From NCBI GenBank assembly GCA_020630355.1, contig JAHDBO010000001.1:1-31478 (forward strand): a stretch of 31,478 nucleotides of DNA, given 5' to 3'. This DNA comes from Saprospiraceae bacterium (lineage in GTDB: Bacteria; Bacteroidota; Bacteroidia; Chitinophagales; Saprospiraceae). Under the pieces are notes generated by a model. That model did not search any database, was not told where the DNA came from, and was given only the letters and a program-made list of their open reading frames with translations. Shown piece by piece: positions 28,032-31,399 of this stretch. Made by a program: the position numbers and the translations under genes. Each line of letters opens with the position of its first letter. The stretch's first letter is position 1.

Positions 28032-28039
28032 CAAAAATA
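28032..28039 (-). promoter_or_regulatory. Housekeeping sigma -7 element for the bacilliredoxin gene
   Basis: Minus strand TATTTTTG(CGC), 59 nt upstream of the ATG. Confidence 0.55.
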
Positions 28040-28084
28040 GCTAATTTCTATACAAATAAACCGCCCAAATAGTTTGGAGGGGCA

Positions 28085-28254
28085 AAACAAAAAATAGCCT
28101 CCCACTTCTGGAAGGCTATTGGATATATTGGTGACAAATTGAAAAAGCTTGTTGTTGAGATGTTTTTTAGGAAAATAACCGGTCGGCGCCCCGACCGATT
28201 ATTTTATTCCATAAACCAAAATCAAAATTAGTATGAAAAACTCTCACTAGTTAT
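28085..28254 (-). ncRNA. Candidate ECF-dependent ~170-nt sRNA
   Basis: Starts ~6 nt after promoter 28260-28289; 15-bp hairpin at 28172-28205 and terminator at 28086-28120, both with G-U on the minus strand but C-A on the plus strand; the only ATG reads ATG GAA TAA. Confidence 0.55.
28086..28120 (-). terminator. Minus-strand intrinsic terminator
   Basis: Minus strand AATAGCCTTCC-agaagtg-GGAGGCTATT followed by TTTTGTTTTG. Confidence 0.75.
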
Positions 28255-28259
28255 TTATA

Positions 28260-28289
28260 TACACGGAGTAGGTTTCAAAAGGGTTGCCT
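28260..28289 (-). promoter_or_regulatory. Second ECF promoter motif, downstream copy
   Basis: AGGCAACCCTTTTGAAACCTACTCCGTGTA (GCAACC-N16-CGTGTA). Confidence 0.7.
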
Positions 28290-28305
28290 ACACCAAAAAT
28301 ATTTT

Positions 28306-29742
28306 TTAAATATTATATAAAATGGAGGCTTTTACCCCGTATAAATTGGGTATAGAAGCGGATTCTTTTTTAATATTTGTATTGTAATATCCCTCCAATT
28401 GCAACATAAAGTCCCTAGAGAAATTATATTCCATCCCTGCATTGATATTGACCGTATTGTAAATAAAAGAACGGTCCTTGGTTTCCAAGTCTGTTTCGGC
28501 CGTTTCGGAGGTGATTAAGTTGGTATAATTGTATTTATATTTTTGGTTGGAAGTGAGTTGGGATGAGAAGCCAGTGCCCAAAAACGGTTGCCATGCAGCC
28601 TTGCTATCGAAGAAATACTTCATTCCAAGTGTGTATTGATAGAAGGTCTGATTCAAGACGACTGCATCTAACTTGAATTCTGGGCCAGGGGACTCGATGT
28701 CGGGAACCGCCGTATTGTCAAAATCATCGGTCCAGCGATTGATGTTCATGTATTCCAAGTCAGAGTACAATCTCAAATCTCCAGCAAAATCAAACTCAAC
28801 TCTTAAACCTGCATTCACTGCGCCTTCTACGACCTCATTGTAATCCTGCTGCATGAATTTGTTGCTGATTAATCCTGCTCCAACGACAGAGCCAACATTG
28901 ACACCCACCAAGCTGAATGGACTATACGTTTGTTTATTGTTCTCTTTTTCTTGGATTAAGTGTTTTTCTTTCGATAATGCTTTTGCTGGCTCGGCATCCA
29001 CGACATCTGGCTTGTCGAAGTCGATGCGCTTTTTATCTTGCTTAAATTGTTGTTTCTTCTGAGCTTGCTGGATTTCATTATAGTCCAAAACTTGATTGAG
29101 CAAAGCTTTCTGATAAGGGTTCAAGTCTGACGTAGAGGTCGTTGAAGGATTTTGTTTTTTATTAGAAAAAAGATTTTTATTGGCGACGCCTAGTTGGATG
29201 CGAGCACCATTTGAGATGCCAGGGGCAGTGTTGATATTCGGTGCCTTAAACTTTTGACCAGTCCAAAGTGGCATAAAGGTCAAGGAGCTGTTTTCAGCAA
29301 ATGTAAAGGTCTTTTTAGGTTTTTGAACGGTTTTTGCAACAGCAACAGCTCGTGGAGTTTGACTTGTTGAAGGTGCTGCCACTTGAGAGACAACTGTATT
29401 TTTACGAACATAAGCAACTGGTGTAGTGATAGCTGTACTTGTAGTTGCGGGCTGTTGTCTAGCTTCTTGCACGGCAGCTATTTGCTGCGACTGCTCCATA
29501 ATACTAGCACGAATGTCTTGTAATTGCCCTTCAGAATGATTTAATCTATACAAAGTATACCCATTGGCCAAAAGCAACATGGCTACAGTTGCGGCTACTA
29601 GATAGGCTTTGTACGGAATGATGCGTACTTTGTCTCGTTCGAGTCGTGGGAGCAAATTCTCCCAGTCTTCGTTGGCGGTTTGAAAAGATTGGGTTTCCCC
29701 TAGCTTTTCGCCGAATAGCTTATCAAAATCTTTATCCAGCAT
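28306..29742 (-). CDS. Dual-membrane-spanning anti-sigma factor-like protein (Dma/Reo architecture)
   Basis: Short N-terminal DKDFDKLFGEKL...DWENL domain, one TM (YLVAATVAMLLLANGY), T/S/A/P/Q-rich tether, C-terminal beta-barrel ending GVKASILYNI; ATG 29742 overlaps the sigma 3' end by 11 nt. Confidence 0.8.
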   Translation of the reverse strand: MLDKDFDKLFGEKLGETQSFQTANEDWENLLPRLERDKVRIIPYKAYLVAATVAMLLLANGYTLYRLNHSEGQLQDIRASIMEQSQQIAAVQEARQQPATTSTAITTPVAYVRKNTVVSQVAAPSTSQTPRAVAVAKTVQKPKKTFTFAENSSLTFMPLWTGQKFKAPNINTAPGISNGARIQLGVANKNLFSNKKQNPSTTSTSDLNPYQKALLNQVLDYNEIQQAQKKQQFKQDKKRIDFDKPDVVDAEPAKALSKEKHLIQEKENNKQTYSPFSLVGVNVGSVVGAGLISNKFMQQDYNEVVEGAVNAGLRVEFDFAGDLRLYSDLEYMNINRWTDDFDNTAVPDIESPGPEFKLDAVVLNQTFYQYTLGMKYFFDSKAAWQPFLGTGFSSQLTSNQKYKYNYTNLITSETAETDLETKDRSFIYNTVNINAGMEYNFSRDFMLQLEGYYNTNIKKESASIPNLYGVKASILYNI

Positions 29743-30289
29743 GTTTACTTTTTTTTCCTTCAATAGACTGTATCATAGCGCGCAATTTTAATCTGGCTTT
29801 CGCCAAATTAGATTTGGATGCCCCTACAGAGATACCTAGTTTTTCTGCAATTTCTGGATGTTTAAAACCTTCGACTGCGTGGAGATTGAATACGACACGA
29901 TAGGCTGGTGGTAATTGTCTTACCATTCCCATCAATGTTTCATAATTCAGATTATGGACAGCATCTGCTCGTGTTTCATAATGCTGTGCATGCGCAATAT
30001 CTACAATCGTTGGTTTGCTCTGGTGTTTCCTGTAATGGTCAATAGCAGTGTTTACCATAATACGGCTCAACCACCCTTTAAAGGAAAGATTGGAATCGTA
30101 TTTGTCAATTTTGGTAAAAACCTTAAGGAAGCCATCATTTAGGATTTCTCTTGCTTCATCTGAGGTCTTGGCGTAACGGCTGGTTATGCTTAGGGCATAA
30201 TTGTGAAAGTGATGGTACAGTTTTTTCTGTGCATCACGGTTGTTCGCCTTGCAAGCTTTGATGATATGGGATAGAGCTTCACCCGTCAT
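29732..30289 (-). CDS. ECF RNA polymerase sigma-70 factor paired with the Dma-like anti-sigma
   Basis: AQKKLY, EILNDGFLKVF, FKGWLSRIMVNTAIDHYRK, YRVVFNLHAVEGFKHPEIAEKLGISVGASKSNLAKAR. Confidence 0.95.
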   Translation of the reverse strand: MTGEALSHIIKACKANNRDAQKKLYHHFHNYALSITSRYAKTSDEAREILNDGFLKVFTKIDKYDSNLSFKGWLSRIMVNTAIDHYRKHQSKPTIVDIAHAQHYETRADAVHNLNYETLMGMVRQLPPAYRVVFNLHAVEGFKHPEIAEKLGISVGASKSNLAKARLKLRAMIQSIEGKKSKHAG

Positions 30290-30300
30290 ATACGCTAAAA

Positions 30301-30330
30301 TACACGTAATTGTATAGGAAAGGGTTGCCT
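30301..30330 (-). promoter_or_regulatory. Second ECF promoter motif, autoregulatory copy
   Basis: AGGCAACCCTTTCCTATACAATTACGTGTA (GCAACC-N16-CGTGTA), 11 nt upstream of the sigma ATG. Confidence 0.7.
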
Positions 30331-30370: not shown

Positions 30371-31399
30371 TTAATCATCTACCCAGACCGTACAGCCTTC
30401 CGTACAATTGGTGCAAATATCGATTTGGTCTCGACCTTGTAAAAGCTGTTGCCGAAAATGTTGATAAGCCTCTCCGTGCCATAATTCTTTGAAAGAAGTC
30501 TTTTTCAAATCACCTAATCGATGGGTTGCATCCTTGTCAAAACAACAAGGAACAACCATTCCGTCCCAAGTGATGACACAAGAGTGCCAAAGTTTCCAGC
30601 AGTGATTCAGGAGTTCGTTTTTGACACGATAAGTGCCATCTTCTTGCTGGGCATACCTTGAATATTTGGAAATGGTCGGGATGAGTTCATTCCCGTTTTC
30701 GTAATCATACACTTGAGCCGTTTTGAGTTTTACCTCATCGATGCCGATTTCCTCGGCAAGTTTATATATTTCTGGTATTTGATGCTCATTTGGTTTGACC
30801 ACCAAAAACTGGAAAATGATATGCGGTTTTTTAGCTCCTAGTTTCTTTTTCCATTTGACGATATTGCGTGCTCCTTGCAAAACGGATTCAAGTTTACCCG
30901 CTTTTCTGTAATTTTCATAGACTTCCTGTGTGGTACCGTCAACAGAGATAATAAGTCGGTCCAACCCTGATTCAATTGTTTTTCTTGCATTTTCATCATT
31001 CAAGAAATGCCCATTGGTCGAAGTAATCGTATAGATACCTTTTTTGTGAGCGTAGTTTACCATTTCCAAGAAGTTAGGATTGATATAAGGCTCTCCTTGA
31101 AAATAGAAAATCAACCAAGTCAAATCCTTTCCCATTTCATCGATGGTCTCTCGGAAAAAATCTTCTTTAAGATTGCCGGTCGGCCGAGTGAATGCCCGTA
31201 AACCGCTAGGACATTCTGGGCACCGTAGGTTGCAGGCAGTAGTGGGTTCGACCGAAATGGTGAATGGCATACCCCATTGGATAGGCTTCCCCGTCCATTT
31301 AGTCGCATAGAAAGAACCATAGACTTTAGATATATTCCACAATCGACGAGGGGTCAATTTGGATATGAAATTCATTGTATCTTTAAAATAGAATGCCAT
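30371..31399 (-). CDS. Radical SAM protein with SPASM/Twitch domain
   Basis: CNLRCPEC cluster motif, FQGEP, STNG; C-terminal CWKLW...VPCCFD...CTNC. Confidence 0.92.
   Translation of the reverse strand: MAFYFKDTMNFISKLTPRRLWNISKVYGSFYATKWTGKPIQWGMPFTISVEPTTACNLRCPECPSGLRAFTRPTGNLKEDFFRETIDEMGKDLTWLIFYFQGEPYINPNFLEMVNYAHKKGIYTITSTNGHFLNDENARKTIESGLDRLIISVDGTTQEVYENYRKAGKLESVLQGARNIVKWKKKLGAKKPHIIFQFLVVKPNEHQIPEIYKLAEEIGIDEVKLKTAQVYDYENGNELIPTISKYSRYAQQEDGTYRVKNELLNHCWKLWHSCVITWDGMVVPCCFDKDATHRLGDLKKTSFKELWHGEAYQHFRQQLLQGRDQIDICTNCTEGCTVWVDD

Follow-up and report, generated by a model that had tools for sequence, protein, structure and literature searches.

Small RNAs (sRNAs) that are driven by extracytoplasmic function (ECF) sigma factors and trim the synthesis of outer-membrane proteins are a textbook feature of Proteobacteria, where RybB, MicA and MicL of E. 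coli and Salmonella and VrrA of Vibrio are the closest described cases. In Bacteroidota the nearest known counterparts of the locus described here are the ECF sigma/anti-sigma pairs Dma1-Das1 and Dma2 of B. thetaiotaomicron (PMC10927553, PMC13088901) and Reo-EcfO of B. fragilis, and sRNAs of B. thetaiotaomicron such as FopS, GibS and BTnc231. The architecture of Dma1 is described in PMC10927553, FopS sRNAs bind next to the susC start codon in Bacteroides and block translation (bioRxiv 10.1101/2023.12.22.572801), and it has been suggested that ECF sigma factors recognise PM2 promoters, for example the one of GibS. The two papers on the Dma/Das systems (PMC10927553, PMC13088901) mention no sRNA, and no ECF-driven sRNA in Bacteroidota turned up in the literature that was searched. 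The stretch analysed here (the window) comprises positions 1 to 31,478 of contig JAHDBO010000001.1 of a Saprospiraceae bacterium (assembly GCA_020630355.1), 31,478 nucleotides (nt) in all, and on its minus strand an operon for an ECF sigma factor and a Dma-like anti-sigma factor is followed by a second copy of the operon's promoter and a predicted sRNA. We consider it probable that this sRNA is a repressor arm of the sigma-E/RybB kind which has been rewired to the ECF/Dma module in the lineage of the window.

A conserved unit for a predicted sRNA behind a second promoter copy

The preliminary description of this DNA, made from the letters alone, had pointed to a motif that stands in matching form before the sigma gene and after the anti-sigma stop, and had proposed scanning the genome with it. 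In the window, GCAACC-N16-CGTGTA matches the minus strand at 28260-28287 and 30301-30328, and none of 100 shuffled sequences gave a match (0/100); in the whole assembly (2.3 Mb, 64% complete, hereafter G000) these are the only two matches, and the pair of motif copies described earlier is confirmed. The two copies, P1 before the sigma gene and P2 past the anti-sigma gene (Table 1), have the longer form AGGCAACCCTTT...CGTGTAT in common. An AAC in the -35 element and a CGT in the -10 element, 17 nt apart, are the classic layout of ECF promoters. The -10 element of P1 ends 11 nt upstream of the sigma ATG (30289), and hence the leader of the operon would be very short, about 4-5 nt, that is, nearly leaderless; such near-leaderless spacing (30289-30306 in the window, minus strand) is likewise seen in two related contigs, L018 from run DRR671603 and L019 from run ERR13858651.

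Upstream of the sigma orthologues the form GCAACC-N16-CGTG is present in five more loci, L018, L019, the metagenome-assembled genome G001 (a Saprospiraceae genome of the same genus), L098 and L099, whose anti-sigma proteins are 66%, 65%, 29%, 33% and 26% identical to that of the window, respectively. The sequence of the spacer varies among the loci and the boxes are constant. P2 is kept in L018, L019 and an unlinked copy in G001, again with a variable spacer. Moreover, a promoter copy just past the anti-sigma gene is found in the distant relatives L099, L100 and L103 (26-30% identity), leading into a non-coding stretch in the first two and into a gene in the third. In L099 (2902-3185) the promoter copy is followed by a seed-like ACUAGUGAAAGUGGUUUUCUCAUGCUUAG and a terminator, and this sequence is antisense to a start reading MRKPLSLV; in L100 (2872-3100) the second copy lies past the anti-sigma stop of a Dma-like operon; and in L103 (2788-2815) it heads a gene for 332 amino acids (aa) without assigned function.

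A stricter form of the motif, GGCAACC-N15-17-CGT, occurs at three sites of G000, namely the sigma gene, the sRNA and a site on contig C276. The last one was rejected as a member of the regulon and is regarded as a chance match because it lies inside an MscS-like open reading frame (ORF) on the opposite strand. The same form has six sites in G001, which is about the control level, and GGCAACC(C)TTTT has only two in that genome, at the sigma gene and at the sRNA. The regulon as defined by the motif appears to consist of the operon and the sRNA only.

Downstream of P2 no ORF of at least 20 aa was found in the sense direction, the longest having 8 codons; a small peptide was rejected as the product, given these sense ORFs of at most 8 codons and an antisense strand that reads MKNSH-stop. 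The earlier statement that the second promoter copy faces no ORF but a unit of hairpin and terminator is therefore upheld, and so is the strand assigned to it: over 181 nt the minus strand folds at -51.9 kcal/mol (z -5.4) versus -43.2 kcal/mol (z -3.1) for the plus strand, and hairpin 1 and the terminator contain one G-U pair each that would be C-A on the plus strand, both stems thus pairing fully only as minus-strand RNA. The conserved sequence starts 7 nt past the -10 element in three of four copies, and homologues free of the ECF promoter (see below) begin at the identical AACUA. This 5' end, shared by ECF-linked and ECF-free copies, supports a start at about 28252, and transcription probably begins near that position. 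Hairpin 1 is a stem that may be structural or may terminate a shorter isoform of about 80 nt, and in the RNAalifold consensus the second conserved block shows a possible pairing with the seed.

It had further been suggested to look for the same succession of promoter, hairpin and terminator after Dma-like genes in other genomes, and in L018 and L019 the unit is present in full after a homologous sigma/anti-sigma operon, in the order promoter boxes, 5' block AACTAGTGAGAGTTTTTCATACTAATTTTGATTTTGGTTTATGGAAT, hairpin 1, linker, block AGCTTTTTCAATTTGTCACCAATATATCC and terminator. Compared with L019, identity is 94% in the 5' block and 90% in the second block, 70-85% in coding DNA, 52% in the linker and 44-60% in the spacer past the terminator; judged by these alignments, the sRNA unit is the best-conserved stretch of the locus. 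Hairpin 1 of L019 carries two compensatory pairs (A-U to G-C and U-G to A-U), and in the terminator a U-G pair becomes U-A. The seed is identical in the window, L018 and L019 and has one change in G001. In G001 the promoter and the 5' block are joined to another terminator, giving an RNA of about 85 nt, and this copy sits between unrelated genes on a contig different from that of the sigma gene. The conservation pattern of the aligned units is that of an sRNA. Across 201 genomes of the family, the combined pattern of promoter and seed has true matches only in G000 and G001; the three remaining matches look like chance, control counts being similar. In metagenome contigs of JGI the exact 35-mer has no match, and nine matches to promoter plus seed there, all GC-rich, were discarded as chance.

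Table 1. Positions of the annotated and predicted elements of the locus in the window
Feature	Position	Strand	Sequence or basis
P1, predicted autoregulatory promoter of the sigma/anti-sigma operon	30301..30330	minus	AGGCAACC (-35), 16-nt spacer, CGTGTA (-10)
ECF sigma factor gene, 185 aa	29732..30289	minus	Pfam Sigma70_r2 and Sigma70_r4_2
Dma-like anti-sigma factor gene, 478 aa	28306..29742	minus	domains, AlphaFold2 model, Foldseek
P2, second promoter copy, 16 nt past the anti-sigma stop	28260..28289	minus	AGGCAACCCTTTTG...CGTGTAT
Predicted sRNA; the long form has about 169 nt, and hairpin 1 may be the end of a short form of about 80 nt	28084..28252	minus	conservation, fold
5' seed	28227..28252	minus	AACUAGUGAGAGUUUUUCAUACUAAU; antisense to -2 to +21 of the SusC-type mRNA
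U-rich single-stranded stretch	28206..28226	minus	UUUGAUUUUGGUUUAUGGAAU; invariant in 4/4 ECF-linked copies
Hairpin 1, 15-bp GC-rich stem, then UUAUUUU	28172..28205	minus	compensatory pairs, terminator scan
Poorly conserved linker	28150-28171	minus	about 52% identity to L019
Second conserved block (block 2)	28121..28149	minus	AGCUUUUUCAAUUUGUCACCAAUAUAUCC; no change among the window, L018 and L019
Intrinsic terminator, 12-bp stem and U-run	28084..28120 (stem 28093-28120, T-run to 28084)	minus	terminator scan

Predicted pairing with a SusC-type start region and a family of related sRNAs

Reverse-complemented, the 5' block reads GUAUGAAAAA(A)CUCUCACUAGUU, which is how the gene of a SusC/RagA transporter starts, and the BLAST matches of the block in other genera are antisense to gene starts. 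The transporter begins with MKKLSLVL in 54 of its 120 best homologues, and an orthologue with this N-terminus is present in Lewinella and Neolewinella. In G000 the corresponding gene (C355:4973-8140) encodes CarboxypepD_reg, Plug and TonB-barrel domains and has a SusD-like neighbour. When duplex energies of the first 25 nt of the sRNA were computed against 2088 crude start regions of G000, this SusC start ranked first with -24.4 kcal/mol (background -9.3 kcal/mol, standard deviation 2.4; best of 30 shuffled seeds -22.8). The predicted duplex extends from -2 to +21 of the mRNA and covers the AUG. The sRNA of G001 and the SusC start region of the same genome give -25.4 kcal/mol, and in the complete G001 genome that start is the only site within three mismatches (<=3) of the 26-mer.

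The 5' block is also the mark of a wider group of RNAs, found by pattern searches with scripted classification, which were chosen since the terminators of the two subfamilies fail to align. Among 201 Saprospiraceae genomes, 40 contain the seed pattern TGAGAGTTTTT-N0-3-ATACTAAT, which has zero control matches. Most of the places that were classified are antisense SusC starts; besides these, an sRNA-type copy, defined as a seed with a GC hairpin and U-run within about 70 nt and no antisense ORF, is present in at least 15 genomes of at least 12 genera. In most genera the family is represented by an RNA of about 70 nt made of the seed AACUA.UGAGAGUUUUUU(U)CAUACUAAUCC and a terminator. Its loci include L060 (G004, seeds at 1501 and 1770), L055 (G110), L045, L064, L051, L066, L080-L084, L087 and L094, and tandem pairs of the sRNA are found in G004 and G110.

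Within eight genomes, the sRNA and the unlinked SusC start form predicted duplexes of -31 to -43.5 kcal/mol over about 30 nt. The two partners change together: the sRNA sequence AAUCCAA faces UUGGAUU in the SusC 5' untranslated region (5'UTR) in G117, G089 and G176, AAUCCGAU faces AUCGGAUU in G015, and AAUCUGU faces ACAGAUU in G213. The compensatory changes fall in the untranslated part, where CCAA goes with UUGG, CCGAU with AUCGG and CUGU with ACAG. At the level of sequence comparison, this co-variation of unlinked loci speaks most strongly for a true pairing of the family with SusC mRNA. Close SusC orthologues from the organisms of L018 and L019 were sought for co-variation within the ECF-linked clade; the best matches in the databases are only 55-60% identical, and none could be used. 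The family is previously undescribed; as far as its sequences tell, it is Saprospiraceae-wide and directed against SusC.

In many genera the nucleotide sequence at the start of the MKKLSLVL SusC orthologue, GGATTAGTATGAAAAAACTCTCACTAGTT, is conserved, synonymous positions included (L041, L063, L065, L072, L086, L088-L090 and others). This conservation of synonymous sites would fit selection for pairing with the sRNA.

A different origin of the unit might be suspected from the same complementarity, namely a non-functional relic in which an inverted 5' fragment of SusC came to lie beside a duplicated promoter: the seed is the reverse complement of the SusC start minus one A, and the plus strand reads MKNSH-stop. 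This explanation, already disfavoured, has next to no probability in our judgement, as the unit is conserved above coding DNA, its stems have compensatory changes, and it is retained both at unlinked sites and in 15 genomes or more, with the terminator always in the sense orientation.

The remaining single-stranded parts of the RNA gave no comparable target. For the U-rich stretch (nt 20-46) and block 2, complementarity to start regions is not above that of intragenic and antisense controls, and a generic role against start regions was rejected, the outlier target being found only for the first 22 nt. In addition, a conserved intergenic element, ACAGCCC..AAAA(T/C)TCTCACTAGTTT, carries an anti-seed that matches the first 17 nt of the sRNA perfectly or with G-U pairs. 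It is located at G000:C370:2940-2983, at a contig end, and a second such element lies in L036 (G001:C55, about 227250-227400, minus strand). In G001 a 10-bp hairpin, AAAACAGCCC/GGGCTGTTTT, holds the anti-seed in its loop; it lies upstream of a RecQ-like gene, at a place where no ORF begins. The element may act as a decoy or sponge or as a second target, or it may be a 5' fragment of SusC that was rearranged.

These observations bear on the question of whether repression of SusC is the main task of the RNA. It is conceivable that the sRNA is real and ECF-driven and that its main task lies elsewhere: the U-rich stretch or block 2 could target other mRNAs, or the sRNA could titrate an RNA-binding protein or another RNA. 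Two more invariant single-stranded blocks lack a predicted target, the pairing with SusC is weaker in the window's own lineage than in other genera, and the anti-seed in a large hairpin loop (G000 C370, G001 C55) is a possible decoy or second partner. Nevertheless, throughout the family conservation is highest in the 5' 26 nt, which co-vary with the SusC 5'UTR in other genera, and the SusC start ranks first among the targets in G000, while no other gene start of G001 has a close site. We therefore find another main role for the RNA rather unlikely and retain SusC as the probable target.

The context of the sRNA copies in other genera is different. They have no ECF motif and are preceded by ...TTTGG|AACUA, that is, a TTTG box of the housekeeping type; all six whose surroundings were inspected (L045, L051, L055, L060, L064, L066) lie 40-270 nt downstream of a gene for a response regulator of about 212 aa of the LuxR/NarL type, and several are preceded by inverted repeats of the form GTTGCC-N8-10-GGCAAC. 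A search of G004 and G022 with the anti-sigma protein gave nothing at E 1e-8. The context of the copies in other genera raises the possibility that the repeated motif of the window is the site of another regulator, and that the RNA comes from a different promoter or solely from processing of the operon's 3' untranslated region (3'UTR). The start of the RNA is placed from sequence, the family members elsewhere follow a LuxR-type gene, the inverted repeats resemble the GGCAAC half of the motif, and the terminator scan found no terminator between the anti-sigma gene and the RNA. On the other side, the AAC and CGT boxes have the spacing generally known for ECF promoters, they keep this fixed spacing before six orthologous sigma genes while the spacer sequence varies, and the unlinked copy in G001 retains both boxes with no operon upstream. 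Even the 3'UTR route would still depend on the ECF sigma factor. We consider such a regulator improbable and go on with P2 as the presumed ECF promoter of the sRNA.

The sigma/anti-sigma pair and the neighbouring genes

The sigma protein scores above the NCBIfam cut-off for sigma70-ECF. The ATG of the anti-sigma gene at 29742 overlaps the sigma stop at 29732-29734, placing the two genes in one operon, and the same pairing is present in L018, L019, L098, L099, L100, L101 and L103. Homologues of the anti-sigma protein fall into about 300 clusters of similar length, in which the N-terminus and the last ~170 residues are the conserved parts, and 39 of 49 aligned members match Pfam OMP_b-brl. In the AlphaFold2 model, helices at 4-37 and a long helix at 45-96 are followed by a disordered linker (101-203, predicted local distance difference test (pLDDT) <50) and by a C-terminal barrel (278-477, pLDDT >90), and Foldseek matches this barrel to OmpA, Ail, OmpX and OprF (E 1e-7, probability 1.0). 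Sequence and model together predict one transmembrane helix, a long disordered linker and a C-terminal outer-membrane beta-barrel of the 8-stranded type. For the complex of residues 1-45 with the sigma factor, the in silico score was 0.85 versus 0.01 for the best control, a mark reached by 51 of 78 solved complexes and by 2 of 108 mismatched pairs; the predicted contacts are with regions 2 and 4 of the sigma factor, in the manner of a clamp. On the strength of the model, the anti-sigma factor is of Dma-like architecture, with a predicted sigma-binding N-terminus, an inner-membrane helix, a periplasmic linker and an OmpA-like barrel, and the description of the locus as an ECF module with a dual-membrane anti-sigma factor agrees with this model and with the Pfam domains of the sigma protein.

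Directly upstream of the operon is a radical SAM/SPASM gene (30371-31399, minus strand), and this synteny is kept in L019 (972-2000).

On the other side of the sRNA lies a bacilliredoxin gene (Pfam Disulph_isomer, E 4e-62). The TAnnTTTG box that had been ascribed to it was found as TATTTTTG at 28032-28039 and is conserved in L019. The earlier reading would have failed if P2 served this gene alone, by read-through. In L018 the sRNA unit is followed by a convergent dihydrofolate reductase (DHFR) gene with no bacilliredoxin gene downstream, so P2 is not there to serve bacilliredoxin. It might still be proposed that P2 mainly drives bacilliredoxin by read-through and that the structured RNA is a regulated leader of that gene, since the gene follows the unit in the window and in L019, and since EcfO/Reo of B. 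fragilis, a related ECF/anti-sigma pair, is tied to oxidative stress according to work cited in PMC10927553. We give this proposal very little credit: besides the DHFR gene of L018, the sRNA of G001 sits between unrelated genes, two hairpins of the terminator type stand between P2 and bacilliredoxin, and the gene has a conserved box of its own.

Proposed mechanism and comparison with known systems

From these findings we suggest the following course for the probable repressor arm. Inactivation of the anti-sigma factor would free the sigma factor, which would transcribe its own operon and, from about 28252, the sRNA; read-through of the operon may also yield the sRNA as a 3'UTR, a route that is possible because no terminator separates the anti-sigma gene from it. 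The first 22 nt of the sRNA would then pair with the SusC/RagA mRNA of C355 from -2 to +21, cover the AUG and block initiation of translation, and the outcome would be less synthesis of a large outer-membrane barrel under envelope stress. In the lineage of the window, an sRNA of the family would have gained both an ECF promoter and a new 3' half and, in most cases, moved behind the anti-sigma gene. From the sequence we infer transcription from P2, its dependence on the ECF sigma factor, the ends of the RNA, both isoforms and the repression. The suggestion of an sRNA arm for a Dma-type ECF system is thus supported as far as a conserved unit with the sigma factor's promoter and compensatory stems can support it, expression and ECF dependence being inferred.

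Several points weigh against this proposal. In the window's lineage the predicted duplex of 22 nt is interrupted by one mismatch and one bulge, includes two G-U pairs and is weaker than elsewhere; as the best shuffled seed reaches -22.8 kcal/mol, the target statistic from the own genome alone is modest, and an assembly that is 64% complete may lack a better target. Part of the seed may be masked by a modelled pairing, either with block 2 or with the linker. The distance from the -10 element to the conserved seed downstream of it is 12 nt in L019 instead of 7. Since the homologues elsewhere are not linked to an ECF sigma factor, the ECF control would be specific to this lineage, being seen in four loci and some looser parallels. 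Finally, searches of sequencing runs matched DNA of one algae metagenome sample and no RNA run.

A more far-reaching interpretation, which we put forward tentatively and hold to be somewhat less than evenly probable, is that the Dma-type anti-sigma factor spans both membranes and reports trouble at the outer membrane, that essentially the one output of the sigma factor besides itself is an sRNA silencing the translation of a conserved major SusC barrel, and that an equivalent of sigma-E/RybB arose independently by capture of an sRNA family linked to response regulators. The locus provides a concrete candidate for an RNA output of a Dma-type system with a specific SusC target, and it has led to a new sRNA family of Saprospiraceae whose pairing with unlinked SusC 5'UTRs is backed by compensatory changes. 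One seed has apparently switched between regulators, in one case a response regulator and in the other an ECF sigma factor. These algae-associated bacteria take up nutrients predominantly through SusC/SusD systems, so that regulating a conserved SusC after transcription would matter.

The comparison with Rfam, which had also been suggested, was run, and every family stays below its threshold. End-to-end alignments of the window RNA were obtained with the models of GibS (RF04182; 33.8 bits versus a gathering threshold of 115), BTnc231 (RF04180; 27.9 versus 80.4) and FopS (RF04319; 20.1 versus 56), all below threshold; it has no match to the RybB, MicA and MicL families at E up to 10, and the short Saprospiraceae homologues have no Rfam match at all.

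The likeness to RybB, MicA, MicL and VrrA lies in an ECF sigma factor for envelope stress and an sRNA promoter of the same type as the autoregulatory one, which in the window is the predicted relation of P2 to P1. As in these sRNAs, a seed at the extreme 5' end is directed at the start region of an outer-membrane protein mRNA, in the known cases to cut new synthesis; here this pairing is predicted in silico, with the first rank among 2088 start regions and the co-variation in the family. Like MicL, the RNA lies at the 3' end of a gene and has its own predicted ECF promoter. The differences are that there is no sequence relation and the phylum is another one. To our knowledge, Bacteroidota lack Hfq. 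Furthermore, the sensor here is a predicted double-membrane anti-sigma factor of the Dma type, whereas the sigma-E system uses RseA with DegS; a 22-strand SusC transporter is predicted to take the place of the porins or Lpp on which the sRNAs of sigma-E act; and in contrast to sigma-E, the motif-defined regulon is apparently confined to operon and sRNA.

With Dma1-Das1, Dma2 and Reo-EcfO the locus shares the operon and the predicted architecture of the anti-sigma factor, and as in Dma1-Das1 the apparent main member of the regulon is next door (NigD2 beside dma1 and das1). The known outputs of Dma/Das are the proteins NigD1, NigD2 and BT_1287 and vesiculation, whereas here the candidate output is an sRNA. 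With FopS, GibS and BTnc231 it shares that it is an sRNA of Bacteroidota with a single-stranded 5' seed containing G.GUUUUUCAUA, which is anti-AUG-AAA and common to the alignments of the window RNA with all three, that this seed is complementary to the susC start-codon region, and that the genes are multicopy or in tandem (here in G004 and G110). It differs from them in belonging to a distant bacterial family and in its promoter: FopS has promoters for the housekeeping sigma factor and GibS the PM2 motif, while the window RNA has that of a neighbouring ECF sigma factor. Taken together, the locus works like RybB, MicA and MicL on the one hand and like FopS on the other, and it is a member of neither group.

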